Source: a virus. Taken from it: 64,000 bases of DNA. The DNA lies in IMG/VR virus record IMGVR_UViG_3300037333_000013, positions 32,001 to 96,000 of that record; one strand, given 5' to 3'. The stretch's first letter is position 1, and each line of letters opens with the position of its first letter. Position numbers and translations under genes: made by a program. The notes below the pieces were generated by a model that worked only from the letters and a program-made list of their open reading frames with translations, was not told the DNA's origin and did no database searches. Below, one piece after another: positions 12,031 to 43,177 of this stretch.

Positions 12031-12060
12031 TGTTATTCCTTATGATTTGTTATTTATTAA

Positions 12061-12118
12061 TCCGCATTACCGGTTACAGGACTATGAACACTTGAGTATT
12101 GCCTGACTATATACTCAA
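12061..12118 (-). ncRNA. Candidate structured leader RNA, class B, copy 1
   Basis: Hairpin with AGUCAGGC loop, then CAUAGUCCUGUA, then a CCG-GUAAUG-CGG hairpin; homologous to 28280-28338 with compensatory changes. Confidence 0.55.
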
Positions 12119-12128
12119 TTACTACTTT

Positions 12129-12137
12129 AATAATATA
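12129..12137 (-). promoter_or_regulatory. Early promoter TATATTATT
   Basis: Exact motif upstream of the TraB-like gene. Confidence 0.75.
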
Positions 12138-12153
12138 CCAGTAAAAAAAAAGG

Positions 12154-12181
12154 ATACACAGTACCACGTGGTACTGTGTAT
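12154..12181 (-). terminator. Terminator of the nvRNAP/helicase operon
   Basis: 28-nt perfect palindrome with a U run on the minus strand. Confidence 0.8.
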
Positions 12182-14514
12182 TAATATCTTAACATCTTGT
12201 TATAAGAACCAATAATATAGTCCTCAACTCTTGGAACAACATATTCCTTGTTCCCACTAATATACTTAAAGTGTTTCGGTATGTTCTTACAGTATAACTG
12301 TACAAACTTCACATCGAACCCCTTAATCTCCCTAAGTCTACCAATCATCTGTATATATGTGGCAATGCTGTCTATGTTCACCGTGTTTAGTGTAAAGATA
12401 AGGTTCTTCACATCAATCGCTTCTGCAAAGACTTGTGGGTGTGTTACTCTAATGTCTGGTTCTAATGCATTCTCGTACTTGTCTTTCCCAGTATACTCTC
12501 TCACATCTAGCGTAGGATACCACTCCTTAACGGCATTTGTGATGACAGTCACCATCTTCAAACTAGATGCAAAGATGAGACATCTGTCATTTCCTCTGTT
12601 CTTTTTTATATAGAACATATCTACGTAGTGTCTTATCATCTCTAAGTAGTCCTCTAATAGTCTACTATTTCTGATAATGATATCTTCAAACATATCGTGG
12701 TTGTAACCATACCCACCATTCACACGTAACTCTCTAGCGGTATCTATACTATACCCAACATTCTCTAACTTAATATAGCTTTTATACGTCAGTAAGTCTA
12801 GACGCATATCTTCTGTAAAGAGTCCGTAGTGGAATCGGTTCAGTGCTTTGTCTTTTGTAATCAATGTGGCTGTTAGACCAATGACTTTCTTTGGGTCTAG
12901 TGCTAAGACTGCACGATAGACGTTGCTAAAGCTCTTGTGTGTTTCATCATTGACGAATGTGTGTATCTTTAGTTTACGCATAAACTCTTTCGGAGTAATG
13001 CAATATTCAGTCTCATCTGCTTTAATGGTATTCAAAAAGTATTCGTCAAAGTTATGGAACGTAGAACCACTTACCAAGATGAATGGAGGTACTTTATCCA
13101 TACCCATCAATTTACAGAATGACTTCTTGCCACTAAGTACAAATATATCATCATCCTCTACATCAAAGTATGTCTTGATGTCTAGTATCCACTTGCTGAT
13201 GTGTCCAGCTAACAGATAAAATAGTGTACGTTTCTTTAACTTTGAGATAACTAAGTTTGCCATATAAGTATTATGTGTTACGATATAATCTGTTGTGACA
13301 TAGAGTTCAGACTCATTGTACACTTCAATGCACGTCGCATTACAGACTCTCGTCGGTTCACACGACACGACTTCGACATATGAATCATCAAACCCTCTGA
13401 GTACATAGACAACATTTTCATATTTAATGTCTACTTGATACCCTGTTGAATAAAGTAGATGTTTTACAATTTCATAGAGTGTTCTATTGGTTGTCACATA
13501 CTTTATCCCACTGTTATTCCTAATTCCTTCTAAATGAAAACCTCTTAGTATTGAATGGCGTTCTTCTACTGTCAATTTTGCAAAGTAAAGACTTGGATTA
13601 TGTCTCATCTTACGAACAATGGATGTCACCTCTTTAAAGTGTGTAAATGATATATTCTGGCCAACCACTTTAAATTCATTGTCACTTACTACCCCATAGA
13701 GTTTAGATAGGTGACTCTCACCAAGCATCATATAGTCATCACCGCATACACCGAACATCAATACTGTTGATGCTATATAGTGTAACTCCGATAGTGCGTG
13801 TGTCTTATAAGGTTTAAACAATGGTATCTCAACACGTATCTTTGTCTTAAGACAAGCCTTTAATACTTTCGTATTAATCGTTTGTTCTAGTCCCCCTATC
13901 TTACATTTCCACAAGTGTTCGAGACCACACTCCGTTTTTCTACCATCTTTCAGTGCTACCTCATACATCTGTTTATTATAGTGTTTTGATACACTTGTAA
14001 TAAACGTCTCTTTACCATTATATGTTGTGACACTCTTTCCTACGTATGAACTCCCTATTGTTTCCCAGCCACGCTCTGTGAGTATTGGCGTATCGTCTGG
14101 TTGCATCTTCCCATATCCAGTACGTGCCATTACAAGTACTCTATCTGGATTCCGTTCTTTCAACATACCATTAATAAAGAACTCCTGTTCATCGCGTGGT
14201 TCGAATGTGTTCTTAAATGGAACATCAATGTCATCATATTCAGTCTCATCTACGATAACCGGAGAGAGTTTCTTTGCACCAAATCTGCTGACAAATTTAT
14301 AAATAAAAAACTGTGCGTCAGACGAGAGAATGGTATACTCGTTCTCTCTAATATTATGAAGATAGTATTTGTCTTTTGGGACGAACGTTGTCTTCCCTTT
14401 CACACGTAACATCTTCATTGTCACGAGTGTCTGACAGAAGTCTTTCATAAAGAAGTCCTCCTCATTGTTCTCAGGCATACACCTGAGAACTTGGTTTCCC
14501 TCTACTAACTTCAT
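12181..14514 (-). CDS. SF2 DExH helicase (phiKZ gp75-like), intein-containing
   Basis: Walker A ARTGYGK|T, DETH, GLTAT, QMIGRLR; follows the gp74-like gene. Confidence 0.9.
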   Translation of the reverse strand: MKLVEGNQVLRCMPENNEEDFFMKDFCQTLVTMKMLRVKGKTTFVPKDKYYLHNIRENEYTILSSDAQFFIYKFVSRFGAKKLSPVIVDETEYDDIDVPFKNTFEPRDEQEFFINGMLKERNPDRVLVMARTGYGKMQPDDTPILTERGWETIGSSYVGKSVTTYNGKETFITSVSKHYNKQMYEVALKDGRKTECGLEHLWKCKIGGLEQTINTKVLKACLKTKIRVEIPLFKPYKTHALSELHYIASTVLMFGVCGDDYMMLGESHLSKLYGVVSDNEFKVVGQNISFTHFKEVTSIVRKMRHNPSLYFAKLTVEERHSILRGFHLEGIRNNSGIKYVTTNRTLYEIVKHLLYSTGYQVDIKYENVVYVLRGFDDSYVEVVSCEPTRVCNATCIEVYNESELYVTTDYIVTHNTYMANLVISKLKKRTLFYLLAGHISKWILDIKTYFDVEDDDIFVLSGKKSFCKLMGMDKVPPFILVSGSTFHNFDEYFLNTIKADETEYCITPKEFMRKLKIHTFVNDETHKSFSNVYRAVLALDPKKVIGLTATLITKDKALNRFHYGLFTEDMRLDLLTYKSYIKLENVGYSIDTARELRVNGGYGYNHDMFEDIIIRNSRLLEDYLEMIRHYVDMFYIKKNRGNDRCLIFASSLKMVTVITNAVKEWYPTLDVREYTGKDKYENALEPDIRVTHPQVFAEAIDVKNLIFTLNTVNIDSIATYIQMIGRLREIKGFDVKFVQLYCKNIPKHFKYISGNKEYVVPRVEDYIIGSYNKMLRY
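13270..14106 (-). mobile_element. Class-3 intein (279 aa) in the helicase Walker A motif
   Basis: Begins MQPDDTPILT, block B HLW, block F TCIEV, ends VTHN with Thr as the +1 residue; WCT signature. Confidence 0.88.
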
Positions 14515-14528
14515 TGTAGCTCCTTTTT

Positions 14529-16397
14529 TTAGTCGTAGTTATCTAAAAATCCTTGTGGGTCTATGAGTACATCTAAGTTATGTGGCTCTTTCATCTCAGA
14601 CTCAATATTATGTATGGTAAACATATTTTGCAATGTCCCAGTAGAAGCCATTGATGTAAACCCACGATACTTTGTAATGGTCCGTATTGTACCAACCTTT
14701 GCATCTAGCCCTCTAGACATCATATAATTCGTCTTTGATGGGTCTTTTGACGCTAGTCCATAGATAACTGTGGCTAGGTGTGAAATGTGCAGACTTAGCT
14801 TTGTATTGTATAAGTCGAAGGTCTCATTTAGAATACGTTCTAGAGACTCAATCTTACCACCATTAATACTCTTACCAGAACCCATGAGTGATTCCAGGTT
14901 CTTTACAAGTTGGTTGTAGTTGAATACATGATTTGGTATGAATAAGAACGGTGTCTTGTAGTTCCAGTTTGTGATATCTACCTCATAACTATCACCATTC
15001 ATTGTCTTACCATATGTTACCATATGCTTTAAGAACTCGGATGTGAATGCCCCGGACTTGTTACCTGCACCTATCTTGAGTTCTAACTCTTCTATCTTCC
15101 CTTTGCTATCTTCTAACTTGATAACGACTGTTTTCACATTAGAAATTCTCTCTGGTGAGACTCTCATGACATCTCTCTCTGTTGTGATGTCCTTAAACCC
15201 ATATGACTCACGCACCTTAACAGAGAGTGTTACGCGTTTGTATTTCTTGTAGAACCTTGTAAATGATAAATTAATATCAGATACTTTAATGTATTTAGAT
15301 AAGTCTCGGCTCAATACGTAGATACCACCATCTGCTGATACGATGAAGTGCTTTGCAGAGAGCAATGACTGTACTGCTGGCTCATTTACCTTTGTACAAG
15401 ACCACTGCCCTAAGTTGAATGCTTTGTGCTTCGCATACCCATGCTTACCGAAACAAGCACTACATACTTCTTTATTGTCCTTAAGTGTACAAGACAATGC
15501 TGTTCTGACATATATTGTCTTTCCGAATAGATGTGTATCATCTCTCGTAATTGTCTTCCACTCGTCTTCAATGTTTATCTTATACATCTGACCTAACAAA
15601 TGTTGTATATCACCATCGTAGTAGTCCCCATGTTCAGTCTTACCTGGTGGTCTAACAAACCGTTGTATCCCAACCTTTGAACCACAGTCTGTATATTTTA
15701 GCTTCTGCACATACTCTGATATAATCTGCGTCGCCTTTGCAAACGACTCAGCATCTCTAATAGATTGTGACGAATAGAAGAGTGCAGTAACAGCACCACG
15801 AGAATCAATCGCTTCAGAAATCAAGTCCGTGTATCCCTCAGCATAGGACTCTGGAATAATCGTACTGAAGATATCGCCAGCAATGTCATTACCGAACCCT
15901 CTTAGTGCTAAACATTGGTCTCCTTGCTTTGTATTAAAAGACTCTGTCAAGTATCCTATACGTACTTGGTTATCTTCACGTATCTCCTCGTTAATGACAC
16001 GTTTTGTCTCTTGGTAAACTTTCTTTACATTTACTGGGTTAGGGTTATCCAATAGTTCTCGTTTTACCTTTCTAATATTCTCATTGTTTATAATTTCATA
16101 AATATCAGATGTTGGCATAAACGACATGTACTTATCGTGCCCGAATCCATACTTATTATACACATCATTAATGAGTTTAAATGTGAGTATGTTGAACTGT
16201 TCTAATGCTTGTTGAAGTTTATCTACTGGTATATAAATAAACATATCTTTGTAAACATCATTTAGTGTAGATACAAGTGTCTTCTTTCCGTAGAGACCAC
16301 TTTTATAATGGTCTCTAATATCGTAGCGTGTTGTTAATCCTACTGAACGTGCTATGTCATTTATCTTAGTGTTCAAGTCAACTTCAGTCTTTGTCAC
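14529..16397 (-). CDS. rpoC: Non-virion RNA polymerase beta' C-terminal subunit (phiKZ gp74-like)
   Basis: DCGS, C..(VCSACFG) zinc site and EPAVQSLLSAKH trigger-loop-like motif; gene order. Confidence 0.88.
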   Translation of the reverse strand: MTKTEVDLNTKINDIARSVGLTTRYDIRDHYKSGLYGKKTLVSTLNDVYKDMFIYIPVDKLQQALEQFNILTFKLINDVYNKYGFGHDKYMSFMPTSDIYEIINNENIRKVKRELLDNPNPVNVKKVYQETKRVINEEIREDNQVRIGYLTESFNTKQGDQCLALRGFGNDIAGDIFSTIIPESYAEGYTDLISEAIDSRGAVTALFYSSQSIRDAESFAKATQIISEYVQKLKYTDCGSKVGIQRFVRPPGKTEHGDYYDGDIQHLLGQMYKINIEDEWKTITRDDTHLFGKTIYVRTALSCTLKDNKEVCSACFGKHGYAKHKAFNLGQWSCTKVNEPAVQSLLSAKHFIVSADGGIYVLSRDLSKYIKVSDINLSFTRFYKKYKRVTLSVKVRESYGFKDITTERDVMRVSPERISNVKTVVIKLEDSKGKIEELELKIGAGNKSGAFTSEFLKHMVTYGKTMNGDSYEVDITNWNYKTPFLFIPNHVFNYNQLVKNLESLMGSGKSINGGKIESLERILNETFDLYNTKLSLHISHLATVIYGLASKDPSKTNYMMSRGLDAKVGTIRTITKYRGFTSMASTGTLQNMFTIHNIESEMKEPHNLDVLIDPQGFLDNYD

Positions 16398-18444
16398 GTA
16401 CTATTCCTTTTAAATTTAACCCTATTGATTGGGTAATCCCTTTGAGTGTCTTTAATACGACCTCTTCTCCAAACGGAATCTCTTTTCTGTTTACAATCTT
16501 ATCGATATTGGATGGCTTTGGTTCATCGAGTAGTTTCCTAGCAATGTGATACTTTGTCTTCATTGCTAAGGAACGGTCTCTCATCTCTGCCAATACAGCT
16601 GGGTGACAGTAGCTCGCCACAAATCGTGTCTCCGTCTCAGACCACTTCGTTGATTTCTCATTGATGACAGAACCTTCTTTTTGAGAAGTCGGTGGTGCAA
16701 CAGGTATCCCTAACGGATTAAGTCTAGAACTCGCAACAACCAACCCATCATCTGCAATCTTATTCAGAGAGAACATATATTGTGTATGCACATGTGTTGG
16801 CATGACACTCATCTCGTATCCTCCGTCGGATGTTGGTATCTTTACTACTTCCTCTTTAATAGCATACTCTGACTCACGTATCTTATCCATAATCACTGAG
16901 AACTTTGTCGCTTTACCATCTTCTCCTTTTACACCTAATGGTATTGGGTATGATATATGCGACTTATAGAACGACAGATACATCCTCGCACGTCGTTCCG
17001 GTTTTGCGTTTTCTAGTATCATTGCTTTCTCTGGATTCACTAACTTAAAGAGACCGATATACATTCTATCTAATTCAGATAGGTTGTCATTGACAAACTC
17101 TTTCACACTACCATTACGTGTGTTTATGAATGCTTTTATTTTCATATCTAAGACACGTACTGCTGTCCCAACATACCCCTCACCTAGATTTCCTAAATTC
17201 ATACGGTGCATATTTGAGTTCGATACAATCATGATATCTGCACGAATTCCGTTTGCATCGACAGGCATCATCTCTTTAGGGACAACAACAGAGATAACCC
17301 CTTTACTACCATGTGTTGTTGTTTGTTTAAATCCAACGTTTACCTTTCTTGTGTATTGCAACGTAATCTCTATGGTGAATGTAGGAACACGTTGTTTCTT
17401 CACTTGTCTGTCTACTTTAGGGTGATAAAGCTTTTGTAGTCTGACTAGTTCTACATATAGTTCATTCTCAAAGTCTACATCTCTATGTGTGTCACTGTAA
17501 TGTTTACATCTGTTGATGAAGTTTAGGTCAAAACTCTTCTTGTTCATCGCAAGCTCCATGAGCATGTCGTGTGCTACTGATAAAGTGTTTGTTTTCTTAC
17601 CGTCAGGGTTGTGTAGTACGGTGACATCAACAACACGTGCGGCTGGAGAGTCTACTTTATACAGATGGTCGTGTATATAGTCAACATAAGACAAATCTTT
17701 ATAACTACAATTTGATAAGAAGTTATCATCGTCCATCTCACGGGTTGCCATGACCAATGCACCACTACCAATAATATCTCCTACTCTAGGGAGTGGCTTA
17801 TATTCATTCTCATCTCCATGCACGTTTAATAGTACTGTTCTACCGTCAGAGTATGTCTTAAAGGACGAGAACAAGTCCATTTCAAACATATCTTGATAAG
17901 CATCAGAGATGTAGAATGCATCTTCTGCTACTTCTGATTTACTGGTATACATAATACTACAGTTCTTTCCGTATGCAAATATACCATCTTTCTCTGCATT
18001 TGTTGACGTTAAGTCTAAAGTGTCATAGATACCACCTTCTCTTAGGTTCATCATATCTTTCGTGAACTTCTGTTCGTAGCCGAACTTCTTATCTTTCTTC
18101 CCCCATCTATCTACTTTAATAAATCCTAGCTTGTTTTCATCTAGGTTCTTATAAATCACGTTGACATAGGTTGCATCTTCTATCTCGCCGTACGTACCTT
18201 TTCCTAGCTCAAAATATGGCAGTATTGCTATGACTTCGAACTTACACCTTATGCGATGATGATAGTTCATCTCTCTAAACTCTTTCTCTAGTGTTGAGAT
18301 GATATATGGTGTATCTGGATTCTTTATTGAAACAGCGTTACCCATTTGTGTAAAGAACATATACTTTCTACTAGACGAATCCATATTCGCTTGTGGACAA
18401 AGTGCTGTTGCACTATACGCTTTTTTATCTAACTCTACCTGCAT
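16384..18444 (-). CDS. rpoB: Non-virion RNA polymerase beta C-terminal subunit (phiKZ gp71-73-like)
   Basis: SSSR..M, EDA, GFKQTTTHGSKGVIS, ADI..RMNLG. Confidence 0.9.
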   Translation of the reverse strand: MQVELDKKAYSATALCPQANMDSSSRKYMFFTQMGNAVSIKNPDTPYIISTLEKEFREMNYHHRIRCKFEVIAILPYFELGKGTYGEIEDATYVNVIYKNLDENKLGFIKVDRWGKKDKKFGYEQKFTKDMMNLREGGIYDTLDLTSTNAEKDGIFAYGKNCSIMYTSKSEVAEDAFYISDAYQDMFEMDLFSSFKTYSDGRTVLLNVHGDENEYKPLPRVGDIIGSGALVMATREMDDDNFLSNCSYKDLSYVDYIHDHLYKVDSPAARVVDVTVLHNPDGKKTNTLSVAHDMLMELAMNKKSFDLNFINRCKHYSDTHRDVDFENELYVELVRLQKLYHPKVDRQVKKQRVPTFTIEITLQYTRKVNVGFKQTTTHGSKGVISVVVPKEMMPVDANGIRADIMIVSNSNMHRMNLGNLGEGYVGTAVRVLDMKIKAFINTRNGSVKEFVNDNLSELDRMYIGLFKLVNPEKAMILENAKPERRARMYLSFYKSHISYPIPLGVKGEDGKATKFSVIMDKIRESEYAIKEEVVKIPTSDGGYEMSVMPTHVHTQYMFSLNKIADDGLVVASSRLNPLGIPVAPPTSQKEGSVINEKSTKWSETETRFVASYCHPAVLAEMRDRSLAMKTKYHIARKLLDEPKPSNIDKIVNRKEIPFGEEVVLKTLKGITQSIGLNLKGIVRDKD

Positions 18445-18473
18445 ACTTTCTCCTTTGTTGTAGGTTACATTTA

Positions 18474-18482
18474 AATAATATA
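18474..18482 (-). promoter_or_regulatory. Early promoter TATATTATT
   Basis: Exact motif upstream of nvRNAP beta C. Confidence 0.75.
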
Positions 18483-18516
18483 TAAGTATAAAAAGACATT
18501 AAAAATAGGATAGATA

Positions 18517-18813
18517 ATGCTAGATAAATTCGTGACAGTTGGAAAACGTGTAGTTGATAAAAGTAAGAAATATGAAGTACGTAAAGTTATTACTGCTAAT
18601 GATAAAGATATAGTAGAGATAGAACTCAATACAGTCAATGCACGTGCTTATATTGGTGACTTCTATGGGTTACTTATGACGTTAAAGATTGATAGACATT
18701 TATGGAACGAAGTGATGGACTTAAACAATATACGATGCTCCTCTGATTATAATGGAAATATTCACGTATTAAAGACGTTCGGAACAACAACTATACAAAA
18801 AACAAATATGTAG
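18517..18813 (+). CDS. Small conserved phiKZ-like hypothetical protein
   Basis: 98 aa with YIGDFYGLL..L.I...W....LN...S.DY; opposite strand between the gp70- and gp71-like genes. Confidence 0.65.
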   Translation: MLDKFVTVGKRVVDKSKKYEVRKVITANDKDIVEIELNTVNARAYIGDFYGLLMTLKIDRHLWNEVMDLNNIRCSSDYNGNIHVLKTFGTTTIQKTNM

Positions 18814-18817
18814 CACC

Positions 18818-18843
18818 TCCCATAGGCACACGTGCCTATGGGA
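18818..18843. terminator. Hairpin between convergent genes
   Basis: TCCCATAGGCAC-AC-GTGCCTATGGGA. Confidence 0.7.
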
Positions 18844-20206
18844 TAGATGTTCTTGTTATTTTTGTGTTCTGTTGTTGTGGTATGTATCCTTGTTGCATAT
18901 ATTGTGGATATGCCTGTTGTGCTTGTTGGTATTGCTGTGTCTGTTGTGGTGGCACGTTATAACTATATTGTTGTACCTGTTGACTTTGTTGTTGTCCTTT
19001 ACCATACACATATGGTGTAACAGCCATCTGTCCATTTTGCGTATTCTGAGCCACTACCATCTCGATACCATTCATCAAGTTTATGACATTCCCATAGTTG
19101 TCTACATATGGATAGGTCTTCTGTTGTTGCATTTGTTGTTGTGTCTGCTGTTGTGGCATTACATACTGTTGTTGTAGTTGTTGTTGCATTTGCTGTTGTG
19201 GAACTACATACTGTTGTTGCATTTGTTGTTGTGCAAGTTGTGGTATGATGTCTGACAGTGGTACGATGTTTGTTCCATTGTTTGACTCCTCTTCAGATGT
19301 GTCGGTATCTTCTTGTTGTTCATACCTGATTTCTGTTTTATCCTTAATGTCGATGTATGGTATCGCCGATGCCATTGATGTAAAACTAGAAAGTTTCTTT
19401 ACGTCATTATAGGTTAGTGTCTTGTTAAACATAGAAACATATCCAGAGTCAGGTGTAGCTATTGGTTCAATCTCGTCAAGTACATCGGTTATCTTTACGA
19501 TTGACTTAATGAGCGTTGTTGCAACTGTATGTTTTGCTAATACAGAGTAACCTAGTCTTGTACCAAACATATCGTTAATGTGTTCTAGATACGCAATCAA
19601 TACTTCACTGTCTATTCTTCTGTACTTTGGATACAGTTCTTTCACTGTCTCTGACTCGATTGATTCTAATAGCTTATGCTTAATAACCATAGCACTAGGG
19701 ACTTTCTCACCATCTACCTCAATGTTCGTTCTATAATGCAGTGAGACAATCTTATCACCACTCTCCAAGAACTTGATGTAGTTAGATAGCATTGTCTCAT
19801 CATAGAGTTTCTTCGATGCTTTCTTTGCACCTTCTACTGTTGAGAAGAACTTACCATTTGAACGCACTGTCTTAAAGTCATAATCTACCTTGTTAATCTG
19901 GTTCTGAACAAACGACACCAAGATAGATTTTAGTGTTAAGTTTAAGTTCAACTCTATAATCTTTAATATCTTGTTTGTGATTGGTTCCTTTGATTGGTTC
20001 CTATATCTGATTAGGTTTTCATAGAGTGGGTTGAAAATCACTGCCCTAATCTCCCCATCAATTAGATACCTCTTATTCACATTGTACAACTCTAGTGGAT
20101 ACCCTTGTACCATTAACTTAGAGTTTCCAACCATCACGACATCATCTTCTACATCCAGACAGAGGCTCTTTAAGAACCTCTTATAAAACTTTTGTAACTC
20201 TTCCAT
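18836..20206 (-). CDS. phiKZ gp70-like conserved protein with a Q/Y/P-rich C-terminal tail
   Basis: FY..FL.SL and FNPLYEN..R..S motifs; position between the gp69- and gp71-like genes. Confidence 0.65.
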   Translation of the reverse strand: MEELQKFYKRFLKSLCLDVEDDVVMVGNSKLMVQGYPLELYNVNKRYLIDGEIRAVIFNPLYENLIRYRNQSKEPITNKILKIIELNLNLTLKSILVSFVQNQINKVDYDFKTVRSNGKFFSTVEGAKKASKKLYDETMLSNYIKFLESGDKIVSLHYRTNIEVDGEKVPSAMVIKHKLLESIESETVKELYPKYRRIDSEVLIAYLEHINDMFGTRLGYSVLAKHTVATTLIKSIVKITDVLDEIEPIATPDSGYVSMFNKTLTYNDVKKLSSFTSMASAIPYIDIKDKTEIRYEQQEDTDTSEEESNNGTNIVPLSDIIPQLAQQQMQQQYVVPQQQMQQQLQQQYVMPQQQTQQQMQQQKTYPYVDNYGNVINLMNGIEMVVAQNTQNGQMAVTPYVYGKGQQQSQQVQQYSYNVPPQQTQQYQQAQQAYPQYMQQGYIPQQQNTKITRTSIP

Positions 20207-20217
20207 AATACCTCCTC

Positions 20218-21717
20218 TTAGATATTTATAATTGCTTCTGATAATGTTTTTACATTATTAGACGCTGTTGTTTGCTCATCGTAGTTTGCTATGACAGGAC
20301 TCATCGTTGAGTATGCATAAGTACTGAACGACGATACTTTTGTCCCTATTCCACCTACTGTTACCTCTACTCTTGCACCCATCTTATTGATGAGTATCCC
20401 TAATCCAATATCTCTTCCTTGCGACACCAATGGGAATACAGTTGTCTGTACCATAGACACAATTGCTTGGAACACTGTTACTGGATTCATACCATCCCTT
20501 GAGAACATCAAATGGTCGTTAATGAGGTCTACTACAACATTATTTCCTATGTTCATATTGGATACTGTGATATGCATCTCTGTTATTGCAAACTTCTTCA
20601 TAATTGGTTGTAGTGCATCGACAAACATATGGGCAGTTGTATCTAATATAGACTCACCACTATTTTCATCAGCATCATATAGATTACTTGCTACATTCGC
20701 GTTCGTTTCAACCAGGAGCATATTGTCATCTACATATCTTTCACCATTGATACCTATCTCGTTGAATAGTTCTACCAATGTATTGTATGTAAAACTCGAT
20801 GTACTGTCAAACATACGCTTACTCAACCAGTTGAAAAACGTGTTCATTACCAATTTTGGCTCGCTCACGTACGTTGCCGCTCTCGCACCTACTCTGTATC
20901 TATCTTCTTCTTTCATACCGTAGTCGTGTGCTAACGATATATTTGTGAGTGTTGTACCTAGTGACTCGATAGGATTGTTATGTTCCGATTTACTCTCTAT
21001 TGGTTTTGTATCGATAGTTGATACCACAGCATTGTCACCATTCATTCCGGATGCCATAAAGTCTAAACTTAAGTCTGTTGGTCTGATACTATACAACTTC
21101 TCATGTTTTCCCATAATCTCCATCTTCTCATAATCAAACTCTATTGTCGTTCCGTATGGATTAGACAATACATTATATGCCTCACTAAGTACATTGTTCT
21201 GATAGATAGAGACAGAGTCAACGATAAACTCTGTATTTGGGTCCAGTGTTCCTTGTAGTGTCTTATCTGCACCATAAGTATACCCAGAGATGACAGTCTC
21301 TTCTACCGTACACCCCATACCTTGTATTGGCGACTCATTTGTTGTAACGAGCGTAAGCTCAAACGCATAGCGTTTTCCCCATCCACCTTTAATCATTGCC
21401 TCTGATGCGAGTGGTGAATATTGGACAATGTTTGAGTAATTGTTCGATAAATTCTCTACTGAAAACGCATTCTCTCTAAATCTACTAAAGTCCTCTTGCA
21501 GTCCTGCCTTTGACATATCATCTAGCACTAGGTGTTTACCTCTACGGTAGTTCTTCGTAGCAAGTGTCTCAGTAAGTTCGAAACTCTTGATTCTCATTGT
21601 TCTGAGTTTTATCAAGTGTAAGTCGAATGTCTCTTGCACCATTGCTGTTTGCTCATCTAGTGTTGGCTGTGCTTGTTGTGTCATTTGATTATTTAGTTCG
21701 TTTAAGTATGGGTTCAT
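20218..21717 (-). CDS. Imp1/PicA (phiKZ gp69)-like protein; putative phage-nucleus import factor
   Basis: 499 aa immediately after the gp68-like gene; GGW..RY.F.L, ISGYT and RPTD motifs. Confidence 0.65.
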   Translation of the reverse strand: MNPYLNELNNQMTQQAQPTLDEQTAMVQETFDLHLIKLRTMRIKSFELTETLATKNYRRGKHLVLDDMSKAGLQEDFSRFRENAFSVENLSNNYSNIVQYSPLASEAMIKGGWGKRYAFELTLVTTNESPIQGMGCTVEETVISGYTYGADKTLQGTLDPNTEFIVDSVSIYQNNVLSEAYNVLSNPYGTTIEFDYEKMEIMGKHEKLYSIRPTDLSLDFMASGMNGDNAVVSTIDTKPIESKSEHNNPIESLGTTLTNISLAHDYGMKEEDRYRVGARAATYVSEPKLVMNTFFNWLSKRMFDSTSSFTYNTLVELFNEIGINGERYVDDNMLLVETNANVASNLYDADENSGESILDTTAHMFVDALQPIMKKFAITEMHITVSNMNIGNNVVVDLINDHLMFSRDGMNPVTVFQAIVSMVQTTVFPLVSQGRDIGLGILINKMGARVEVTVGGIGTKVSSFSTYAYSTMSPVIANYDEQTTASNNVKTLSEAIINI

Positions 21718-23228
21718 TATATTTCCTTTATGTGTTTGATATATCTGGCGAAGTCATTTCGCACATCTGGTGTTTGTCCCATATAGTCTTCTTGTACGTC
21801 TCTATATGGTTCTTCTAGTAGGTATGTATAGTGACCCAAGTTAATAGAGTCTGTCATCGCATTGATGACCTCTGTTATCTTGTCATCTTTACTCTTCTTT
21901 ACATATACTCTATACTCATTCGATAGCTCTTCTACTAGCTCTCTCTTTACAGAATATAATCGTATCGGCTTTGTAATTCTACCTTTACCTATCGTATATG
22001 TCGTATCCACTGACATCAACATATATTTTGCCATCGGTGCATGACCATTCTCTATTGCGTAAGCAGCAAACACAACAGCCATATTTACAACTTGTTCCCT
22101 CTCTAGTACAGGATAAGCTAATGGACTATCGTACGGTAATCCTAATATACGTTTTGTCATAGTGAGTTTTAATAAATTCACAGTGAACGGATGTAAGATA
22201 TGTGTACTGTCAAACATTGGTTCAGCCATCTTCAAGAATTTCTCAACAAGAGACATATCTTTTATGCCGAAGTCTTTTGCTAGTCTTGTTATATCACGAT
22301 ACTGTTTACGCATCACCTCGACTTTACCAGGGCTATATGGTGTTGCTTGTCTATATGTCTCAAAGATAGACTGTTCACTATCAGCATCACCAGTAGAAGA
22401 TGGTCCTTTCACAGTAAACTTATGCTCTGATTTCTTATTGCTGTTGAAGATGTTAGACACCAAGTAGTACATTCCACCAATGATGTTGCTATGTGATGGG
22501 GGGTTCTTAATGGTTGCATAAGTTGGGAATGTCTTGAATAAAAGCGTCCCTAACACATACTCTGTCACCTCTGTTGAACCAATGTTCTCTACCATAGTAG
22601 AGACTCGCATTCTATTCTCTTCTCCACCAGACGTCTTATCAATGTGTGATGTGATGAAACGTTCTAGTCTCAACATTGGCTCAGTCTGTGTGAACTCTTT
22701 ATACCCTCTCTTTAGGATAATGAACAATGCTTCGTGTGTGTATTGCTTAATCAACATATCCGTTAGTGGTATCAGCACTTTAGAAGCTATGACGATTGTC
22801 ATTAAGTCTATAAACTCACTCTTTAAATAAGTCTGGTCTCTAGACTCAATAGCGTTCTTCTCGTTATCCATATTGAATGTCTCTTTTAGTCTATCTGGTG
22901 CAGTCATTCCCTCCCTGAGTATAAACTCTTTAATCACAGTGATATCCATATAAGATAGTAACTCTCTCATATAGTATCCTGCTTTTTGTATATCAGCACC
23001 TTTGGATAACTCTTTCCACATCTGCTTGTAGACAGTCTCTATTCTATCGTTCAATTTATAGTGTTCTACAAACCGATTAAATAGTTCCAGCATCTCTGGA
23101 TTCTTTAGTAGTTTACTCTGGCTCTTTGCTGTAAATGAAGCGATAGAGAACAATGTTTCTGGATTATCGTTCAGATACGCCATATGTGAACTGTTCTCCC
23201 TTCCTAAAGCTAGTGTTATCAAATTCAC
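21717..23228 (-). CDS. nvRNAP promoter-specificity (sigma-like) subunit, phiKZ gp68-like
   Basis: RDQTYLKSEFIDL and SIFETYRQ....SPG match recalled gp68 motifs (DQTYLK.DY..L, SF.E.......PG); 503 aa; gene order. Confidence 0.82.
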   Translation of the reverse strand: MNLITLALGRENSSHMAYLNDNPETLFSIASFTAKSQSKLLKNPEMLELFNRFVEHYKLNDRIETVYKQMWKELSKGADIQKAGYYMRELLSYMDITVIKEFILREGMTAPDRLKETFNMDNEKNAIESRDQTYLKSEFIDLMTIVIASKVLIPLTDMLIKQYTHEALFIILKRGYKEFTQTEPMLRLERFITSHIDKTSGGEENRMRVSTMVENIGSTEVTEYVLGTLLFKTFPTYATIKNPPSHSNIIGGMYYLVSNIFNSNKKSEHKFTVKGPSSTGDADSEQSIFETYRQATPYSPGKVEVMRKQYRDITRLAKDFGIKDMSLVEKFLKMAEPMFDSTHILHPFTVNLLKLTMTKRILGLPYDSPLAYPVLEREQVVNMAVVFAAYAIENGHAPMAKYMLMSVDTTYTIGKGRITKPIRLYSVKRELVEELSNEYRVYVKKSKDDKITEVINAMTDSINLGHYTYLLEEPYRDVQEDYMGQTPDVRNDFARYIKHIKEI

Positions 23229-23281
23229 ATTTTCTCCTTTCTGAATTCGTTAGTTCTATTAGCTACTTAGAACTACACCAA

Positions 23282-23290
23282 AATAATATA
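23282..23290 (-). promoter_or_regulatory. Early promoter TATATTATT
   Basis: Exact motif upstream of the gp68-like gene. Confidence 0.75.
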
Positions 23291-23303
23291 CAAATTAAAA
23301 AAT

Positions 23304-23333
23304 ATTACATGTAGACCGAAGTCTACATGTAAT
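23304..23333 (-). terminator. Terminator after the major capsid gene
   Basis: 13-bp stem with a UUCG loop on the minus strand, then a U run. Confidence 0.85.
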
Positions 23334-23337
23334 TTAC

Positions 23338-25326
23338 TTAAGCGATTGCTTGGTAGTATCTAACGTTTTTCTTCGCATACTCTGCGATATCTGGTAACTC
23401 GATATCTAAGAAGATTGGAAGTGTGACGTGGTGTTTACCATAAGATACAGTAGTGATTTTTGATTTGTTATTATCAATACGTTCTGCAACAGCAACGTGT
23501 GATTTAACAAATGAACCTACTCTAAACCCAGCTTTCATTGGGTCACTCGGTGCACCAGATGTACCAATAGCCATTACAGCTCTTTTTGAGAACACTGAAG
23601 ATTCGTTTGACTCTAACTTAACAGGCATCCCGTTCACAGTAATGTCTGAACCAATAGCAGCTACGAGTGCCGGTGGAACGATAAGGACTGGATGATATGC
23701 AATACCACTAGCTTTCGCTACTCTGTTATATCTTGTTCTTGTTGTCATGTCTGCAAAGTGAACACCTAAGAAGTCTTCGAATGAAGTCTTGAATGCTTCT
23801 CTTTTGTCAGTTGACTTATCAGCATCTACCTGGTCATTGACTGAGAATGTTACTTTGTCGTAGTATGAATCAACAACTGCCATAAGTGGATATACGAATG
23901 CTGTTGGTGTTGTTGGTTCTCCACCCCCTACATATGATGCCATCTCTGCAAGTGTATTTTTGATTTTGATAATACCCCTTACAGTTGCTGAGCTGTATGC
24001 TAAAGAGATGAGTGCATTAACATCTAAGTTATCATTTATGTTCCCACCATTAAGAATGCTAGTATGTACACTCGCAACACTGAATGGCTCAATACCTAAC
24101 AGCTTTGTATGGTTCTTACTTACAAGTACAGGTCCCTCTTTTGCTAATGCTAAGTCTGAGATAGTTGCATCGTAGTATACACCTTTTGGCACAATAGTAG
24201 CGACAGCATCGACAATATCTTTTACTGCGGCATCATCTAATGAAATGATGTTTCCAGCTAAATCTCTGATAGCAACAAGTTTGATAGATGTTACGTTTGT
24301 AAGCAGTGGTGTTTTTAAGTTACCAGAACCAGAAACTTGGAACTCTAACTCTGCATTATATGTCATAGGCAATGTATTAAGGTTCTCAGTCTCAGTACCG
24401 TCATACTTTGTCATTGTTGCTAAGTTGAACGCACGTGTCCCACGAATGTTAAGGATAAGACCTTGTTCTTCTCCTTCTCCTTCTCCAGCAATGAATGTTG
24501 TACCATTCATACCCGCAAGATTGAATTTGATATAATCGATAACATCATTATCATCATCATCTTTTGTTGTAATCTCACAAGCAATAGCTTCTACTGATGG
24601 TAGTGTTGCGAGGATTGTTTCTGTTGTTGGAACACCCTCTGTAAGCATTACATCTGTCATAGACTCTGCAATAAGGTCTACATCTACACCTAGCTCTACT
24701 GGTGCTGTTTTGACTTCTTCTTTCGTTTGTGGGTGTACGATTGTTTGCTCGAAATCCGATACAGTATGACCATCATCATTCACAACTGGAATAAGTCTTA
24801 AATCATTGACTGCAAGTGGTCCTTCTACATCATACATCGCATTGATAATGGCGACTGATTCTGGTTTCACTGCTGTTCTTGTTCTACGTGTAGGACGTTC
24901 GATGTATGTTGTTGCAACAGATACTTTCATACCAGCTATGGCCGGGTCTACTTCAACTGTTGGGAAGAAAGCTTCAATAGAGCTATCTTGGTGTCTCTCA
25001 GAAGCATTTACTTCAAAGTTTACTGCGATGATAGCTGCAGGGTCACTATTGTCAAAGTTTTCTGTATCAATCCCTTTGAGACTTAACTCTTTGTCACCAA
25101 CAGCAATTTCATTCTCACCAACCTTTAACGGCTCAGAACCAACTTTTAACCCTTTTGCGAGAGAAAATACTTTCTTTGCTACTTCTTGTCTTCTCTGTGA
25201 ATTTGATTCACTTTCTGCATCCATCGTTGTTACATCAGCACCTGCAATGAGAGAAACTGCTTCATCTTCATCATGTACCGAGCCAATAGAGACAGCTTTG
25301 AGGTCTTCGAATCTTTCTTTTAACAT
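23338..25326 (-). CDS. Major capsid protein (phiKZ gp120-like)
   Basis: QDSSIEAFFPTVEVDP and C-terminal HHVTLPI motifs; acidic propeptide; divergent from DnaB as in phiKZ. Confidence 0.85.
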   Translation of the reverse strand: MLKERFEDLKAVSIGSVHDEDEAVSLIAGADVTTMDAESESNSQRRQEVAKKVFSLAKGLKVGSEPLKVGENEIAVGDKELSLKGIDTENFDNSDPAAIIAVNFEVNASERHQDSSIEAFFPTVEVDPAIAGMKVSVATTYIERPTRRTRTAVKPESVAIINAMYDVEGPLAVNDLRLIPVVNDDGHTVSDFEQTIVHPQTKEEVKTAPVELGVDVDLIAESMTDVMLTEGVPTTETILATLPSVEAIACEITTKDDDDNDVIDYIKFNLAGMNGTTFIAGEGEGEEQGLILNIRGTRAFNLATMTKYDGTETENLNTLPMTYNAELEFQVSGSGNLKTPLLTNVTSIKLVAIRDLAGNIISLDDAAVKDIVDAVATIVPKGVYYDATISDLALAKEGPVLVSKNHTKLLGIEPFSVASVHTSILNGGNINDNLDVNALISLAYSSATVRGIIKIKNTLAEMASYVGGGEPTTPTAFVYPLMAVVDSYYDKVTFSVNDQVDADKSTDKREAFKTSFEDFLGVHFADMTTRTRYNRVAKASGIAYHPVLIVPPALVAAIGSDITVNGMPVKLESNESSVFSKRAVMAIGTSGAPSDPMKAGFRVGSFVKSHVAVAERIDNNKSKITTVSYGKHHVTLPIFLDIELPDIAEYAKKNVRYYQAIA

Positions 25327-25384
25327 ATATAAATCCTTTAATGTCTGTGTATTATGTATAGTCGACTACACATCAAGTAATAAG

Positions 25385-25729
25385 CTAATCGTTCTGTGAC
25401 ATCATAATAAGATAGCATCGTTTTAACTCGCCTTTTTTCAGTGCCCGTATCTCTTCTATCTTACGATATACCTCTATGCTCATACCTCCATCACCAATCA
25501 TATTTTTATCCATTTCAAGTAGTGATTCATGAATAATTAGATTCACACCGTCTGTACTCAATAAGTTCTCATTTTCTGGTTTCTGCTTAAGTATACTTTT
25601 TGCACTCATCACGTTCCTTACATACGTTGCTGCATTGTCTATATGTTTCCTATCATACTTATTCAACTTCTCTATGTCGAAGTTTAGTTCTCTCATCAAG
25701 CCATACATACTCTTAGGTATCACTAACAT
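25385..25729 (-). CDS. Hypothetical protein (gp119 position)
   Basis: 114 aa, AAGGA SD, between DnaB and the capsid gene. Confidence 0.6.
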   Translation of the reverse strand: MLVIPKSMYGLMRELNFDIEKLNKYDRKHIDNAATYVRNVMSAKSILKQKPENENLLSTDGVNLIIHESLLEMDKNMIGDGGMSIEVYRKIEEIRALKKGELKRCYLIMMSQND

Positions 25730-25798
25730 ATTTATCCTTTTCTATTATTCAGTTAATCTCCATCTGATTCTGTTGTTTGAAAATTTAAAGGATAAACA

Positions 25799-27322
25799 AT
25801 GAATTCTGTTACACTTTTAGTAGATTGTATTCTACTGTTACTCTTAGAGAGTAAAGCAAATTTAGAGAACGAGAGTAGCCAGATGATACAGAAGTTACTA
25901 GATTATCAAGAGTCAACTTCTACACGATGGAATGTATCGGATGACAGTATCACGATGAAACTCTCTACCATTATTGCATCACTCTTATCTTCTGTAAATA
26001 AAGGTGAACCTATTGATGTGGATAGAACGGTGCGTATCTTAAAGATTGAAACTGCTACTACGAGTGATTTAGAGGGTGATGAAGATTTAAGAGATACCAT
26101 CTTAGATATGATTAAGTCTGTTGAGTCACTAGATGGTGATGAACTATACAGATACATTGATAATATTAGAGCTTCTGTTTCCGACGCTTATAACAATGAA
26201 GCACTAAAACGTTTCTTGCAGTCACAAACTATGGATATGAATAAACGAAACAACAGCAAGAGTTTTAGAGATAGGTTAGAGAGCTTGAGAGTTTACGTGG
26301 ATAAACTTGAAGATGGTTCTGGAGATAAAGATGACGCTATTCTATTTGAACTCGATTTGGACGACTTATCAAAACCAGAAGTGGTTGAGAAGCTTGAGTC
26401 TAGTATTGTTACAAAACATATCTTTAGAACTGGTTGGAAGGGCATTAACAGAATGTATCAGGGTGGTAGACGTGTTCCAGAGTTCTCTTCCGTTGGTGCA
26501 TTAACACACAACTATAAGTCTGGCTATCATCTCTCTATCTTTGCGAGTATTGTATTGTACAATAAACCTATTATGAGGGATAAAGGAAAGCCACTGGCGG
26601 TATACTTTAGCTTCGAAGATGATGTTATGCCTATCTTTGAGTTCTTATATCAATTGCTATACATTACTGAGACAGGTTCTGTACTAAAAGAGATTTCTGT
26701 TAAACCTGTTGATATGGTGCGAGACGTTGCTAAGAAGTTGCAGGCTAAGGGATTTGCTGTAAAGATTATTAAAATTGACCCTACAAGATGGTCTTATGTA
26801 TCATTTGTAAATAAGGTGAAGCGTTATATCGCACAGGGATACGACCCACAGATTGTCGATGTAGACTACTTTGAAAAACTCCCAACCACTGGCATTGATG
26901 CAAATGGTCCTATGGGATACGATAAGAAAGTACTTGTAAGGAAAGTCAGAAACTTCCTAGCTAGTATTGACGCGAGTGGGAGTACTCCGTGGCAGCTCTC
27001 TTCTAAGGCATCAGACTTAAAGAAAGATGGATTGACAGATAAAGACTTCTTATCATTCGTTGCACCAAAGCAATATTATCAAGGGAGTGCTACGTTAGGA
27101 AATGAAATGGATTTAGAGACATTTACCAATATCGTAGAGACAAACGACAATGGGTGTTGGCTTAATATTCATATGGGTAAACATAAAATACCGACAGTTG
27201 TAGATAAGAAGTACAAAAGTTACTTCCTACCATATCCACAAAATGGACCAATACCATTTGATATAGAGTTAGAAAATGAAATTGGTTCATATGATGTAAA
27301 AACACCAAATCCATTCTACTAA
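25799..27322 (+). CDS. dnaB: DnaB-like replicative helicase (phiKZ gp118-like)
   Basis: TGWKGINRM, GALTHNYKSG (Walker A variant), SFED, VDY, TPWQLS, GKHK. Confidence 0.88.
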   Translation: MNSVTLLVDCILLLLLESKANLENESSQMIQKLLDYQESTSTRWNVSDDSITMKLSTIIASLLSSVNKGEPIDVDRTVRILKIETATTSDLEGDEDLRDTILDMIKSVESLDGDELYRYIDNIRASVSDAYNNEALKRFLQSQTMDMNKRNNSKSFRDRLESLRVYVDKLEDGSGDKDDAILFELDLDDLSKPEVVEKLESSIVTKHIFRTGWKGINRMYQGGRRVPEFSSVGALTHNYKSGYHLSIFASIVLYNKPIMRDKGKPLAVYFSFEDDVMPIFEFLYQLLYITETGSVLKEISVKPVDMVRDVAKKLQAKGFAVKIIKIDPTRWSYVSFVNKVKRYIAQGYDPQIVDVDYFEKLPTTGIDANGPMGYDKKVLVRKVRNFLASIDASGSTPWQLSSKASDLKKDGLTDKDFLSFVAPKQYYQGSATLGNEMDLETFTNIVETNDNGCWLNIHMGKHKIPTVVDKKYKSYFLPYPQNGPIPFDIELENEIGSYDVKTPNPFY

Positions 27323-27331
27323 GGAAATCCT

Positions 27332-28084
27332 ATGTTTCTATTTAAAGACATTATTACACCAGACGTCTGTCGTAGACACACAGAGTTTCTCTATGTATAT
27401 GGTGATAATCTAAAGCACACAGGAACGGGTGGTCAAGCTATTATACGCGATGAGCCAAACAGTTTCGGAATACCAACAAAACATGAACCTACTCGTAGTC
27501 CAGCGGCATACTTCTCCGATAGAAGTGATGAAGTATCTGTTGTTGAGAGATATTTAAAAGAGCTTGATGAGATGAGTGATGGTGGTAGAGTCATTGTACT
27601 TCCTACTAACCCTGTTGGCACTGGCCTCGCTAAACTAGATGAGTGGTCCCCAAAGATAGCTAAAATGATACGCGATTGGTGGAGTAGCAAACCTAGATTA
27701 TACACGTCTAATTTCGCTAGTATAAAGAAAGACAGGTCTATTAGGGTGATTCCAATCACACGGTTTACACCTAAGTGGATTGATTGTGAATTTGAAATGA
27801 AAGAGTTATCTCCTAAATCACTCACTTTATTAAAGTATAAGAAAGGTGAGATTAACGATAAAGAGTATATCTATGCGTTTGATGATGTATTACGGGAGTT
27901 ACTACCACTAAACGTCATTGAGACGTGCATTGATAAAGATAGTGCGTTTACGTGCTTCTGTGGTAAGGGTGCGTTCTGTCATAGGCATCTAGTTGCTGAA
28001 TGGATTGAACGTGAGTTAGATATCATCATTAATGAGTTTGGGTATGAAAAAACAAAAAGAAAACTAGGTAAGCTGAGTAGATAG
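27332..28084 (+). CDS. Two-domain protein: macro-like phage domain (VYGDN..GGQA..GIPTK) fused to a DUF488-like domain
   Basis: N-terminal VYGDNL...G.GGQA, FGIPTK and GTGLA; C-terminal LYTSNF, LSP, C.C....FCHR.LVAEW. Confidence 0.7.
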   Translation: MFLFKDIITPDVCRRHTEFLYVYGDNLKHTGTGGQAIIRDEPNSFGIPTKHEPTRSPAAYFSDRSDEVSVVERYLKELDEMSDGGRVIVLPTNPVGTGLAKLDEWSPKIAKMIRDWWSSKPRLYTSNFASIKKDRSIRVIPITRFTPKWIDCEFEMKELSPKSLTLLKYKKGEINDKEYIYAFDDVLRELLPLNVIETCIDKDSAFTCFCGKGAFCHRHLVAEWIERELDIIINEFGYEKTKRKLGKLSR

Positions 28085-28104
28085 GGATTAATCCCTATCT
28101 ACTC
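28075..28104. terminator. 30-nt perfect palindrome between convergent genes
   Basis: GAGTAGATAGGGATTAATCCCTATCTACTC. Confidence 0.75.
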
Positions 28105-28249
28105 TCTTCTTCATCATCTGACTTATCAGAACCTTTCCATTGACAAACGTTGTCTGATGTGAACCTCTAGGAACCCACCCACCATCAACAGCCTCCTTTA
28201 GTCGTTTATTAAATTTCTCTATTGTGGTTGTCAATAATTGATATTCCAT
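28088..28249 (-). CDS. 53-aa DUF1737-like early protein (not in the ORF track)
   Basis: Hand translation MEYQLLTTTIEKFNKRLKEAVDGGWVPRGSHQTTFVNGKVLISQMMKKRVDRD; AAGGA SD; Y.LL....F..R....GW...G pattern. Confidence 0.7.
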   Translation of the reverse strand: MEYQLLTTTIEKFNKRLKEAVDGGWVPRGSHQTTFVNGKVLISQMMKKRVDRD

Positions 28250-28279
28250 AATTTATTCCTTTATTATATTAAATATTAT

Positions 28280-28338
28280 TCTGCATTACCAGATACAGGT
28301 CTATGTCTTCATACTATAATGCCTGACTATTATAGTAT
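28280..28338 (-). ncRNA. Candidate structured leader RNA, class B, copy 2
   Basis: 10-bp stem with AGUCAGGC loop, CAUAGACCUGUA, UCUG-GUAAUG-CAGA hairpin. Confidence 0.55.
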
Positions 28339-28342
28339 TAGT

Positions 28343-28426
28343 AATTCAATTACACCATAATAATATATAGGTAAAAAAAAAAGGCATACACAATGTCATA
28401 TGACATTGTGTATTCTATCACTTCTT
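28343..28426. repeat. Stop-terminator-early promoter cassette, copy 1 (about 83 bp)
   Basis: Nearly identical to 43178-43259; differs only in A-run length and one substitution. Confidence 0.9.
28359..28367 (-). promoter_or_regulatory. Early promoter TATATTATT
   Basis: Exact motif inside the repeated cassette. Confidence 0.75.
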
Positions 28427-43114: not shown

Positions 43115-43177
43115 AATTTCTCCTTTATTATTAAGTGGGTTATGAAGCCCATAATGTTAGCTTCTACGAAGCACAGC

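Follow-up and report, generated by a model that had tools for sequence, protein, structure and literature searches.

A leader motif of about 60 nucleotides (nt), whose comparative evidence supports a compact double pseudoknot, is found six times in the IMG/VR virus record IMGVR_UViG_3300037333_000013. Two of these copies lie in the window, by which we mean the 64,000-nt stretch analysed here (bases 32001-96000 of the 164,667-bp record). All six are on the minus strand, each between a promoter-like box and a Shine-Dalgarno (SD) sequence. We favour, tentatively and at somewhat less than an even chance, the reading that the motif acts post-transcriptionally, as an operator or stabiliser module that a protein or the platform of the 30S ribosomal subunit recognises. 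The copies, their placement and their fold rest on comparison, and from these we infer transcription, the binding of a factor and an effect on translation or mRNA stability.

Copies of the motif

The motif consists of a first hairpin (stem P1 and loop 1), a spacer, and a short second hairpin (stem P2 and loop 2). Four bases of loop 1 pair downstream in a first pseudoknot (PK1), and loop 2 pairs with bases lying 5′ of the PK1 3′ strand in a second one (PK2). Two minus-strand copies, running from 12118 to 12061 and from 28338 to 28280, had been claimed in the initial annotation of the window and are located exactly there (copies c1 and c2). Two more were obtained by listing all TATATTATTA-like boxes in the contig, and two diverged ones by a first covariance model. 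The features of the two window copies, followed by the positions of the other four in the contig (G000), are as follows.

12154-12181, minus strand: terminator hairpin (12-bp stem) of the upstream gene of 777 amino acids (aa), then a T-run; opens the c1 cassette
12128-12137, minus strand: early-promoter-like box TATATTATTA of c1, assigned from sequence and phiKZ-type layout
12061-12118 (12057-12118 in the six-copy listing), minus strand: copy c1, whole motif; 75.5 bits with model R3
12111-12118 with 12092-12099, minus strand: P1 of c1
12102-12105 (CAGG, loop 1) with 12077-12080 (CCUG), minus strand: PK1 of c1; across copies PK1 pairing is 100%, with covariation at 2-3 positions
12084-12086 (CAU) with 12065-12067 (AUG, loop 2), minus strand: PK2 of c1; invariant save in c5 (AAU:AUU)
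12071-12074 with 12061-12064, minus strand: P2 of c1; loop 2 (GUAAUG) at 12065-12070
12037-12041, minus strand: SD (AAGGA) of c1, 19 nt after P2; ATG at 12028-12030 of the 198-aa gene 11434-12030
28386-28413, minus strand: terminator hairpin upstream of c2, then a T-run
28358-28367, minus strand: early-promoter-like box TATATTATTA of c2; then palindrome GTAATTGAATTAC at 28341-28353
28280-28338 (28276-28338 in the six-copy listing), minus strand: copy c2, whole motif; 81.7 bits with model R3
28329-28338 with 28311-28320, minus strand: P1 of c2
28322-28325 (CAGG) with 28296-28299 (CCUG), minus strand: PK1 of c2
28303-28305 (CAU) with 28284-28286 (AUG), minus strand: PK2 of c2
28290-28293 with 28280-28283, minus strand: P2 of c2; loop 2 (GUAAUG) at 28284-28289
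28257-28261, minus strand: SD (AAGGA) of c2; ATG at 28247-28249 of the 53-aa gene 28088-28249
28075-28104, convergent: hairpin closing the single-gene c2 unit
G000 117029-117094, minus strand: copy c3
G000 5262-5331, minus strand: copy c4
G000 6552-6616, minus strand: copy c5
G000 7326-7392, minus strand: copy c6

Covariance model R3 scores the six copies at 49-82 bits, against 17.9 bits for the next best place in the contig, and the copies are therefore far beyond chance. Outside c1 and c2, the two conserved words are not found in the window. Copies c6, c5 and c4 belong to consecutive units, each with a promoter of its own.

Fold and covariation

Ten sequences, with all four helices annotated, were aligned with Infernal (alignment A7). 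MAFFT was unsuited to the variable first stem and shifted c3, and a model made from c2 orthologues followed by Infernal realignment was used instead. Two places where the alignment has gaps, the loop of c3 and the first PK2 base of c5, were read directly from the sequence. P1 and P2 form part of the covariance model, so that their counts lean towards structure; PK1 and PK2 were kept out of the models and their counts are consequently not model-fitted. In A7 97.1% of the paired cells can pair, and double changes are seen at 14 of the 19 pairs. None of 500 shuffled controls reached the observed value on any measure, and moving the partners by 1-3 columns brought pairing down to 24-45%. The compensatory changes thus go beyond the controls, which is the mark of a conserved structured RNA.

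P1 comprises 6-11 bp and has a different sequence in every paralogue. The observation that the first stem differs between the window copies and nevertheless pairs is correct (TTGAGTAT/ATACTCAA in c1, ATACTATAAT/ATTATAGTAT in c2), as is the swap noted in the second stem (CCG/CGG in c1, CTG/CAG in c2), and both hairpins also covary in the other four copies and in the orthologues of related phages. P2 is found as CCG/CGG, CUG/CAG, GUG/CAC, AUCA/UGAU, UUCG/CGAA and GUG/CAU. G-U pairs (in P2 of the related phage C and in the outer P1 pair of c5) are confined to the sense strand. Minimum-free-energy folding recovers P1 in 8/9 copies and P2 in most.

Loop 1 contains GU and then the four PK1 bases. 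Beyond the spacer, the consensus reads (C/A)AU-AR-N, four bases complementary to loop 1, two bases, and P2 (3-4 bp) with the loop GUAAU(G/U). The initial annotation described the loops, the spacer length and the intervening bases as invariant. This holds for c1 and c2 as regards loop AGTCAGGC, CATAG-N-CCTGTA and loop GTAATG, all identical in the two; family-wide, loop 1 varies outside GU and the four pairing bases, and the spacer, supposedly fixed at 5 nt, measures 3-11 nt. Some 10-12 unpaired bases are strictly conserved, including the GU before PK1, the A after CAU and the GUA of loop 2.

The pairing of loop CAGG with CCUG had been proposed from two identical examples, and it proves to covary in three further ways in the four additional copies and in orthologues from related phages. 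CAGG:CCUG is found in c1, c2 and the c2 orthologue of the related phage B (a 5′-cut c1 copy in phage C keeps the CCUG strand alone), CACG:CGUG in c3 and its phage B orthologue, CUGG:CCAG in c4, c6 and the phage B orthologue of c6, and GUGG:CCAC in c5. Three bases 5′ of the PK1 3′ strand, CAU pairs with the AUG of loop 2 as PK2. This second proposed pseudoknot is unchanged in nine sequences and becomes AAU:AUU in c5, a compensatory double change. These are the only two changes of c5 among about 12 invariant unpaired positions, and by a rough hand estimate the probability that they would fall on complementary predicted partners is ~2%. We consider PK2 supported, by a single event.

The linkers measure 3-6 nt from P1 to the PK1 strand, 1-2 nt back, and 11-17 nt from P1 to the PK1 3′ strand; by our own estimate these lengths look sufficient for all four helices to form together. 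GUA spans the 3-bp PK2, and AUG runs directly into the 3′ strand of P2, from which it follows that PK2 would stack on P2. The comparative evidence thus supports a compact double pseudoknot of ~60 nt, of which the three-dimensional arrangement given here is putative.

Placement in the leader

In both window copies the order is terminator hairpin (perfect in each), T-run, TATATTATTA box, motif, A/U-rich tail and AAGGA-N6/7-ATG. The early promoter of phiKZ is characterized by a T-rich stretch and an extended -10-like box (PMC8244752), and the T-run and extended -10-like box found here fit that layout. The location after early-promoter-like boxes and upstream of unrelated genes agrees with the initial annotation; the labels TraB/GumN-like and DUF1737-like that it gave to the first two genes correspond to sub-threshold Pfam matches only.

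The distance from the end of P2 to the SD is 17-20 nt in 9/10 leaders and 26 nt in one, whereas that from the promoter box to P1 ranges from ~9 to ~40 nt, which indicates that the motif tracks the ribosome-binding site (RBS) and not the promoter. The motif ends at about -28 to -40 from the start codon, placing it at the 5′ edge of the region covered by the 30S subunit. In the six motif-bearing (Class B) leaders, the longest, the SD is 86-118 nt past the box, as against 17-67 nt in the others. An unstructured, A/U-rich tail follows the motif. In the predicted minimum-free-energy folds the SD remains free of pairing, and neither a terminator between motif and ATG nor, among the 10 copies, a conserved anti-SD sequence was found.

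Some other candidate elements in these leaders were rejected. UCCU in the PK1 3′ strand might act as an anti-SD; it is present in c1 only, with c3, c5 and L030 lacking it. A leader mini-ORF (open reading frame) starting at the loop 2 AUG (M-x-N-N/I-x-stop; c1-c4 and L029) has no SD, and c5 has AUU and c6 AUG-UGA at this position. It is 5 codons long in the window copies (12065-12047, M-R-I-N-K, and 28286-28269, M-Q-N-N-I, both minus strand) and is probably a by-product of the A/T-rich tails. Lastly, UCAUAR does not behave as a mimic of the initiator-tRNA anticodon: c5 changes both CAU and AUG, keeping the pairing and not the Met identity.

Related phages

Relatives were reached through homologues of the RNA polymerase subunit, the c1 gene, the c3 helicase and the c5 gene. 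A search for homologues in metagenomes, which the initial annotation had recommended, revealed the motif in at least two related uncultivated phages, B and C, both of which carry orthologous copies. Phage B (ERZ27262639, SRR7968103 and JGI 3300026521) has 27-28% G+C, and its RNA polymerase subunit and helicase are 68% and 82% identical, respectively. The motif precedes its c2, c3 and c6 orthologues; the c1 orthologue has a short, motif-free leader. In the c3 leader of this phage P1 changes from TTAACAC/GTGTTAA to AATAACAT/ATGTTATT and P2 from CUG/CAG to GUG/CAC, and in the c6 leader AUCA/UGAT is replaced by UUCG/CGAA; the motif is kept and P1 and P2 vary by compensation. A gene for a dimeric dUTPase has been inserted in phage B, with the 777-aa gene orthologue on one side and the c1 orthologue on the other (L020:14241-14315, 15109-15193). 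Both dUTPase-gene leaders are short and motif-free, which shows a cassette-level rearrangement at the c1 spot.

Phage C (SRR12604679), with an RNA polymerase subunit 67% identical, carries the motif before the c1 orthologue. One contig ends 13 nt into this copy, with a P1 identical to that of c2, and the next starts in the spacer; a third contig, containing the c5 orthologue, starts directly past P2. The Logan twin of an 80%-identical MYG1 orthologue (P0067) starts just past P2 and adds nothing on PK2. Edges of the SRR12604679 Logan contigs inside the motif are found at L022:9620-9686, L029:1-36 and L038:1-35. Such breaks are consistent with an assembler meeting a multi-copy repeat, and short-read assemblies therefore probably under-report the copies.

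More distant phiKZ-like phages (L033 and L034), whose helicase is 48% identical, do not have the motif. Three pattern scans of IMG/VR gave no match or chance matches only, protein-based locus searches of IMG/VR (with the capsid protein and an RNA polymerase beta alignment) gave no relatives, and a pattern scan over 185,579 species genomes yielded a single chance match that lacked the structure. Judged from these comparisons, the motif family is narrow but real.

Possible functions of the motif

According to the mechanism that we propose, a cis-acting RNA module of ~60 nt would form part of some early-transcript 5′ leaders, namely those belonging to six of the roughly 20-25 promoter-like sites in the contig. 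Once folded, the knot would be bound in trans by an RNA-binding protein of phage or host origin, or by the 30S platform itself, and this binding would set translation initiation and/or shield the mRNA against 5′-end-dependent decay. The genes behind the motif would thereby be controlled together, and the module would travel within a terminator-promoter-leader-SD cassette that recombines between genes. We favour such an operator or stabiliser because there is no transcriptional read-out, the genes are unrelated, the unpaired bases are fixed, the motif tracks the RBS, and a precedent exists in gene 32. Simple autoregulation is unlikely, since six different genes bear the motif.

The gene 32 operator of coliphage T4 and of RB69 appears to be the closest working precedent and the most similar in its mode of action. 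There, a 5′ pseudoknot nucleates the spreading of protein over an unstructured A/U-rich stretch that contains the RBS (PMC535899). The same architecture, a small pseudoknot 5′ of an unstructured A/U-rich segment leading into the SD (PMC535899, PMC3014915), is found in the leaders described here. Unlike the gene 32 operator, these have a double pseudoknot and an extra hairpin, precede six unrelated genes instead of one autoregulated gene for a single-stranded DNA-binding protein, and show no sequence similarity to it. Among bacterial mRNAs, the nested double pseudoknot of the E. coli alpha operon (S4) and the pseudoknot of rpsO (S15) are protein-binding translational operators. Ribosomal-protein pseudoknot operators have been reviewed as a class (PMC10931766). 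They too are pseudoknotted mRNA leaders at the ribosome-binding region, but their knots include the SD or AUG and serve ribosomal-protein autoregulation, whereas our motif stops 17-26 nt short of the SD and shows no resemblance to those operators in sequence.

A parallel for the movement of the module is provided by the promoter-early stem-loop (PeSL) cassettes of the T4-type phages RB49 and phi1, in which a terminator hairpin and an early promoter flank accessory genes and act as recombination points (PMC2839356). Here, likewise, a terminator hairpin directly before an early promoter is repeated between accessory genes, with terminator, T-run, promoter and leader start near-identical from unit to unit. 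The leader module may also have been exchanged or lost among the related phages: the motif is missing before the c1 orthologue of phage B, and the phage C c1 copy, whose contigs break in the motif, has a c2-type P1. In contrast to these leaders, PeSLs have no pseudoknotted leader RNA, and the promoters here are of the phiKZ type and not the sigma-70 type. The apparent gain, loss or swapping of the module between orthologous genes of the source phage (A) and phages B and C is suggestive of a movable leader module.

Several points weigh against the operator or stabiliser that we favour. PK2 rests on one double change, and its stacking geometry is unusual, with 0 nt between AUG and the P2 3′ strand. 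A ligand pocket or a catalytic core would explain the strictly conserved unpaired bases just as well. The family is small (three related phages) and its sequences are not fully independent; the constant SD distance may be due in part to common descent, several tails sharing AUAAUUAA..AUCAUAAAGGA. Finally, the presumed transcription start is placed by the phiKZ-type promoter layout only.

The initial annotation regarded the motif as a riboswitch or ribozyme candidate, in our view a less likely reading. It would then represent a new small functional-RNA class, either a leader-trimming self-cleaving ribozyme or an aptamer for a metabolite or second messenger, built on the interlocked double pseudoknot; taken together, we regard this as possible but unlikely. 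The search of Rfam that had been suggested was carried out with cmscan, at the gathering threshold on the window and to E<=10 on 301 nt around each window copy. Rfam 15 gave no match at the gathering threshold and nothing relevant at E<=10, whether among the ribozymes (pistol, twister, twister-sister, hatchet, hammerhead and HDV-like/theta) or among the riboswitches (preQ1-I/II/III, SAM-II/V, fluoride, guanidine-III, ZTP and others). This places the motif outside the pistol, twister, HDV/theta, hatchet and hammerhead families and outside every curated riboswitch family.

A new self-cleaving ribozyme would cut the leader to give an mRNA with a 5′-OH and a defined short leader. The size of ~60 nt, the double-pseudoknot topology and the strict conservation of unpaired bases would suit this, as would the occurrence of several copies in phage genomes, which is also seen with pistol, twister and hammerhead. 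Pistol comes closest to mind: in ~50-60 nt it has a hairpin loop pairing downstream followed by a second hairpin, and it is common in phage DNA (PMC4604425). It differs in possessing a G-U cleavage site and a P2 helix that joins the segment after P1 to the 3′ tail and encloses the second hairpin; we found no equivalent of this helix, the spacers and tails of the 10 copies lacking conserved complementarity; moreover, the second loop of our motif is conserved and forms a pseudoknot of its own. All copies occupy a fixed spot before the RBS, whereas ribozyme contexts are usually varied, and new ribozyme classes are rare. With no Rfam ribozyme model matching, we consider self-cleavage doubtful.

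Small aptamers of the H-type pseudoknot kind, such as preQ1-I and SAM-II, exist, and a compact pseudoknotted fold with conserved junction bases, present in several copies and always in 5′ leaders, could be a new aptamer through which a small molecule of host or phage tunes the translation of an early-gene set. No expression platform is visible, however: the SD lies 17-26 nt downstream and is unpaired, and there is neither a conserved anti-SD nor a terminator. The six downstream genes have no metabolic theme in common, and Rfam offers no riboswitch match, which makes a riboswitch more doubtful still than a ribozyme.

The knot might also act without any factor, blocking the 5′-to-3′ exonuclease RNase J or the 5′-end-dependent scanning of RNase E and so prolonging mRNA life. 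This explanation is partly nested in the one we favour and would draw on a stable knotted fold between the 5′ end and the RBS, but the unpaired bases have been strictly kept despite a fully diverged P1, which points to specific recognition or a specific tertiary fold, and for a mechanical block, helices of 4 bp (PK1) and 3 bp (PK2) are short. We rate it as doubtful, on a par with the ribozyme.

HK022 put and lambda nut are structured RNAs at the start of early transcripts, with several copies per genome. A similar RNA that modifies the phage RNA polymerase just past the early promoters, through antitermination or pausing, would account for the position of the motif directly after early promoter-like boxes, for the two hairpins, which are also present in HK022 put, and for a genome punctuated by strong terminators. 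There is, however, no terminator here that needs read-through: within the c1 unit there is none, the c2 unit is one 53-aa gene closed by a convergent hairpin, and the c6, c5 and c4 units each have their own promoter. Placement follows the SD and not the promoter, the fold is pseudoknotted unlike those of put and nut, and this phage brings its own multisubunit RNA polymerase. We consider such a role very unlikely.

That the conserved words (ATAGTCAGG / ATAGWCCTG) have no role in RNA and serve a DNA-binding regulator as half-sites of a double-stranded DNA operator is scarcely credible: the direct repeat ATAGTC in loop 1 and junction of c1, c2 and c4 is not kept in c3, c5 and c6 (TTTGTC, GAAGTG and TTAGTC versus ATAGTC, ATAGAC and ATAATC), the spacing between the two sites is variable, complementarity and not sequence is kept (in four versions in one genome), only the sense strand shows G-U pairs, and the copies are all oriented alike in their leaders.

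Genes downstream of the motif

The six unrelated genes encode paralogous proteins of 198 and 190 aa, a 53-aa protein, a Suv3-like DEXQ helicase, a MYG1-family exonuclease and a 141-aa ORF product. Two RNA-metabolism homologues thus stand behind the motif, the MYG1/UPF0160-family exonuclease homologue (Pfam 4e-18) and the Suv3-like DEXQ-box helicase; their genes (L016:1626-2726 and L015:303-1505, both minus strand) belong to the same genome and lie outside the window. The two together hint at a phage RNA-decay module.

Source genome and other early leaders

The record, with an estimated completeness of ~62%, has 36% G+C. It encodes a phiKZ-type major capsid protein and split multisubunit RNA polymerase subunits, from which we conclude that it derives from a phiKZ-like jumbo phage. 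The closest GenBank phage to the major capsid protein is Burkholderia phage FLC9, with just 26% identity, and BLASTN of both motif regions against GenBank phages gave no match; as far as sequence comparison goes, the source is an uncultivated phage without close cultured relatives. ARAGORN identified zero tRNA genes across the 164.7-kb contig. The TATATTATTA sites with an upstream T-run are essentially all on the minus strand of the contig.

Most early leaders open, at the same position, with a palindrome (GTAATTGAATTAC, GTATTGAATAC or TGTATTGAATACA) in which an A/T swap is compensated. Either the transcript has a hairpin here at its 5′ terminus, or the palindrome is a DNA site that overlaps the start point; in c1 it overlaps P1. 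A further group of leaders (Class A) has a second hairpin 17 nt before the SD, with the sequence UGGGCUUCAUAACCCA, UGGUCUCAUAAGCCA or UGGUUUCAUAAGCCA (window 43136-43151, minus strand; the G000:C1 leader after the box at 19536; L038:1150-1166). This hairpin almost reproduces the anticodon stem-loop of initiator tRNA, GGGCUCAUAACCC, a sequence checked in the E. coli tRNA-Met genes, and could be an anticodon-arm mimic serving as a decoy or operator.

An ORF-less promoter-to-terminator unit is located ~16 kb before the start of the window (G000:C1:15816-15969, minus strand). It comprises a 13-bp stem around a 52-nt loop with GAGUAAACAGGCA, then GGUAGUCCUGUUU and the terminator; AAACAGG:CCUGUUU might form a 7-bp pseudoknot. 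The unit has the words GU..CAGGC and UAGUCCUGU in common with the Class B leaders, lacks P2 and GUAAUG, and scores under the model threshold.

Significance

We found no published description of the motif in the literature, and it is absent from Rfam 15. To our knowledge, gene control in nucleus-forming jumbo phages is known mainly with respect to their own RNA polymerases and promoters, and post-transcriptional control is almost unknown. All of the readings considered here are testable with synthetic RNA, owing to the small size of the motif. The early genes that it marks form a sub-regulon, with an RNA helicase and an exoribonuclease homologue among them. Should the motif cleave or bind a ligand, it would constitute a new ribozyme or riboswitch class; if it is true that a protein or the ribosome reads it, the motif would define a translational operator new among phages and offer a way to the regulator.

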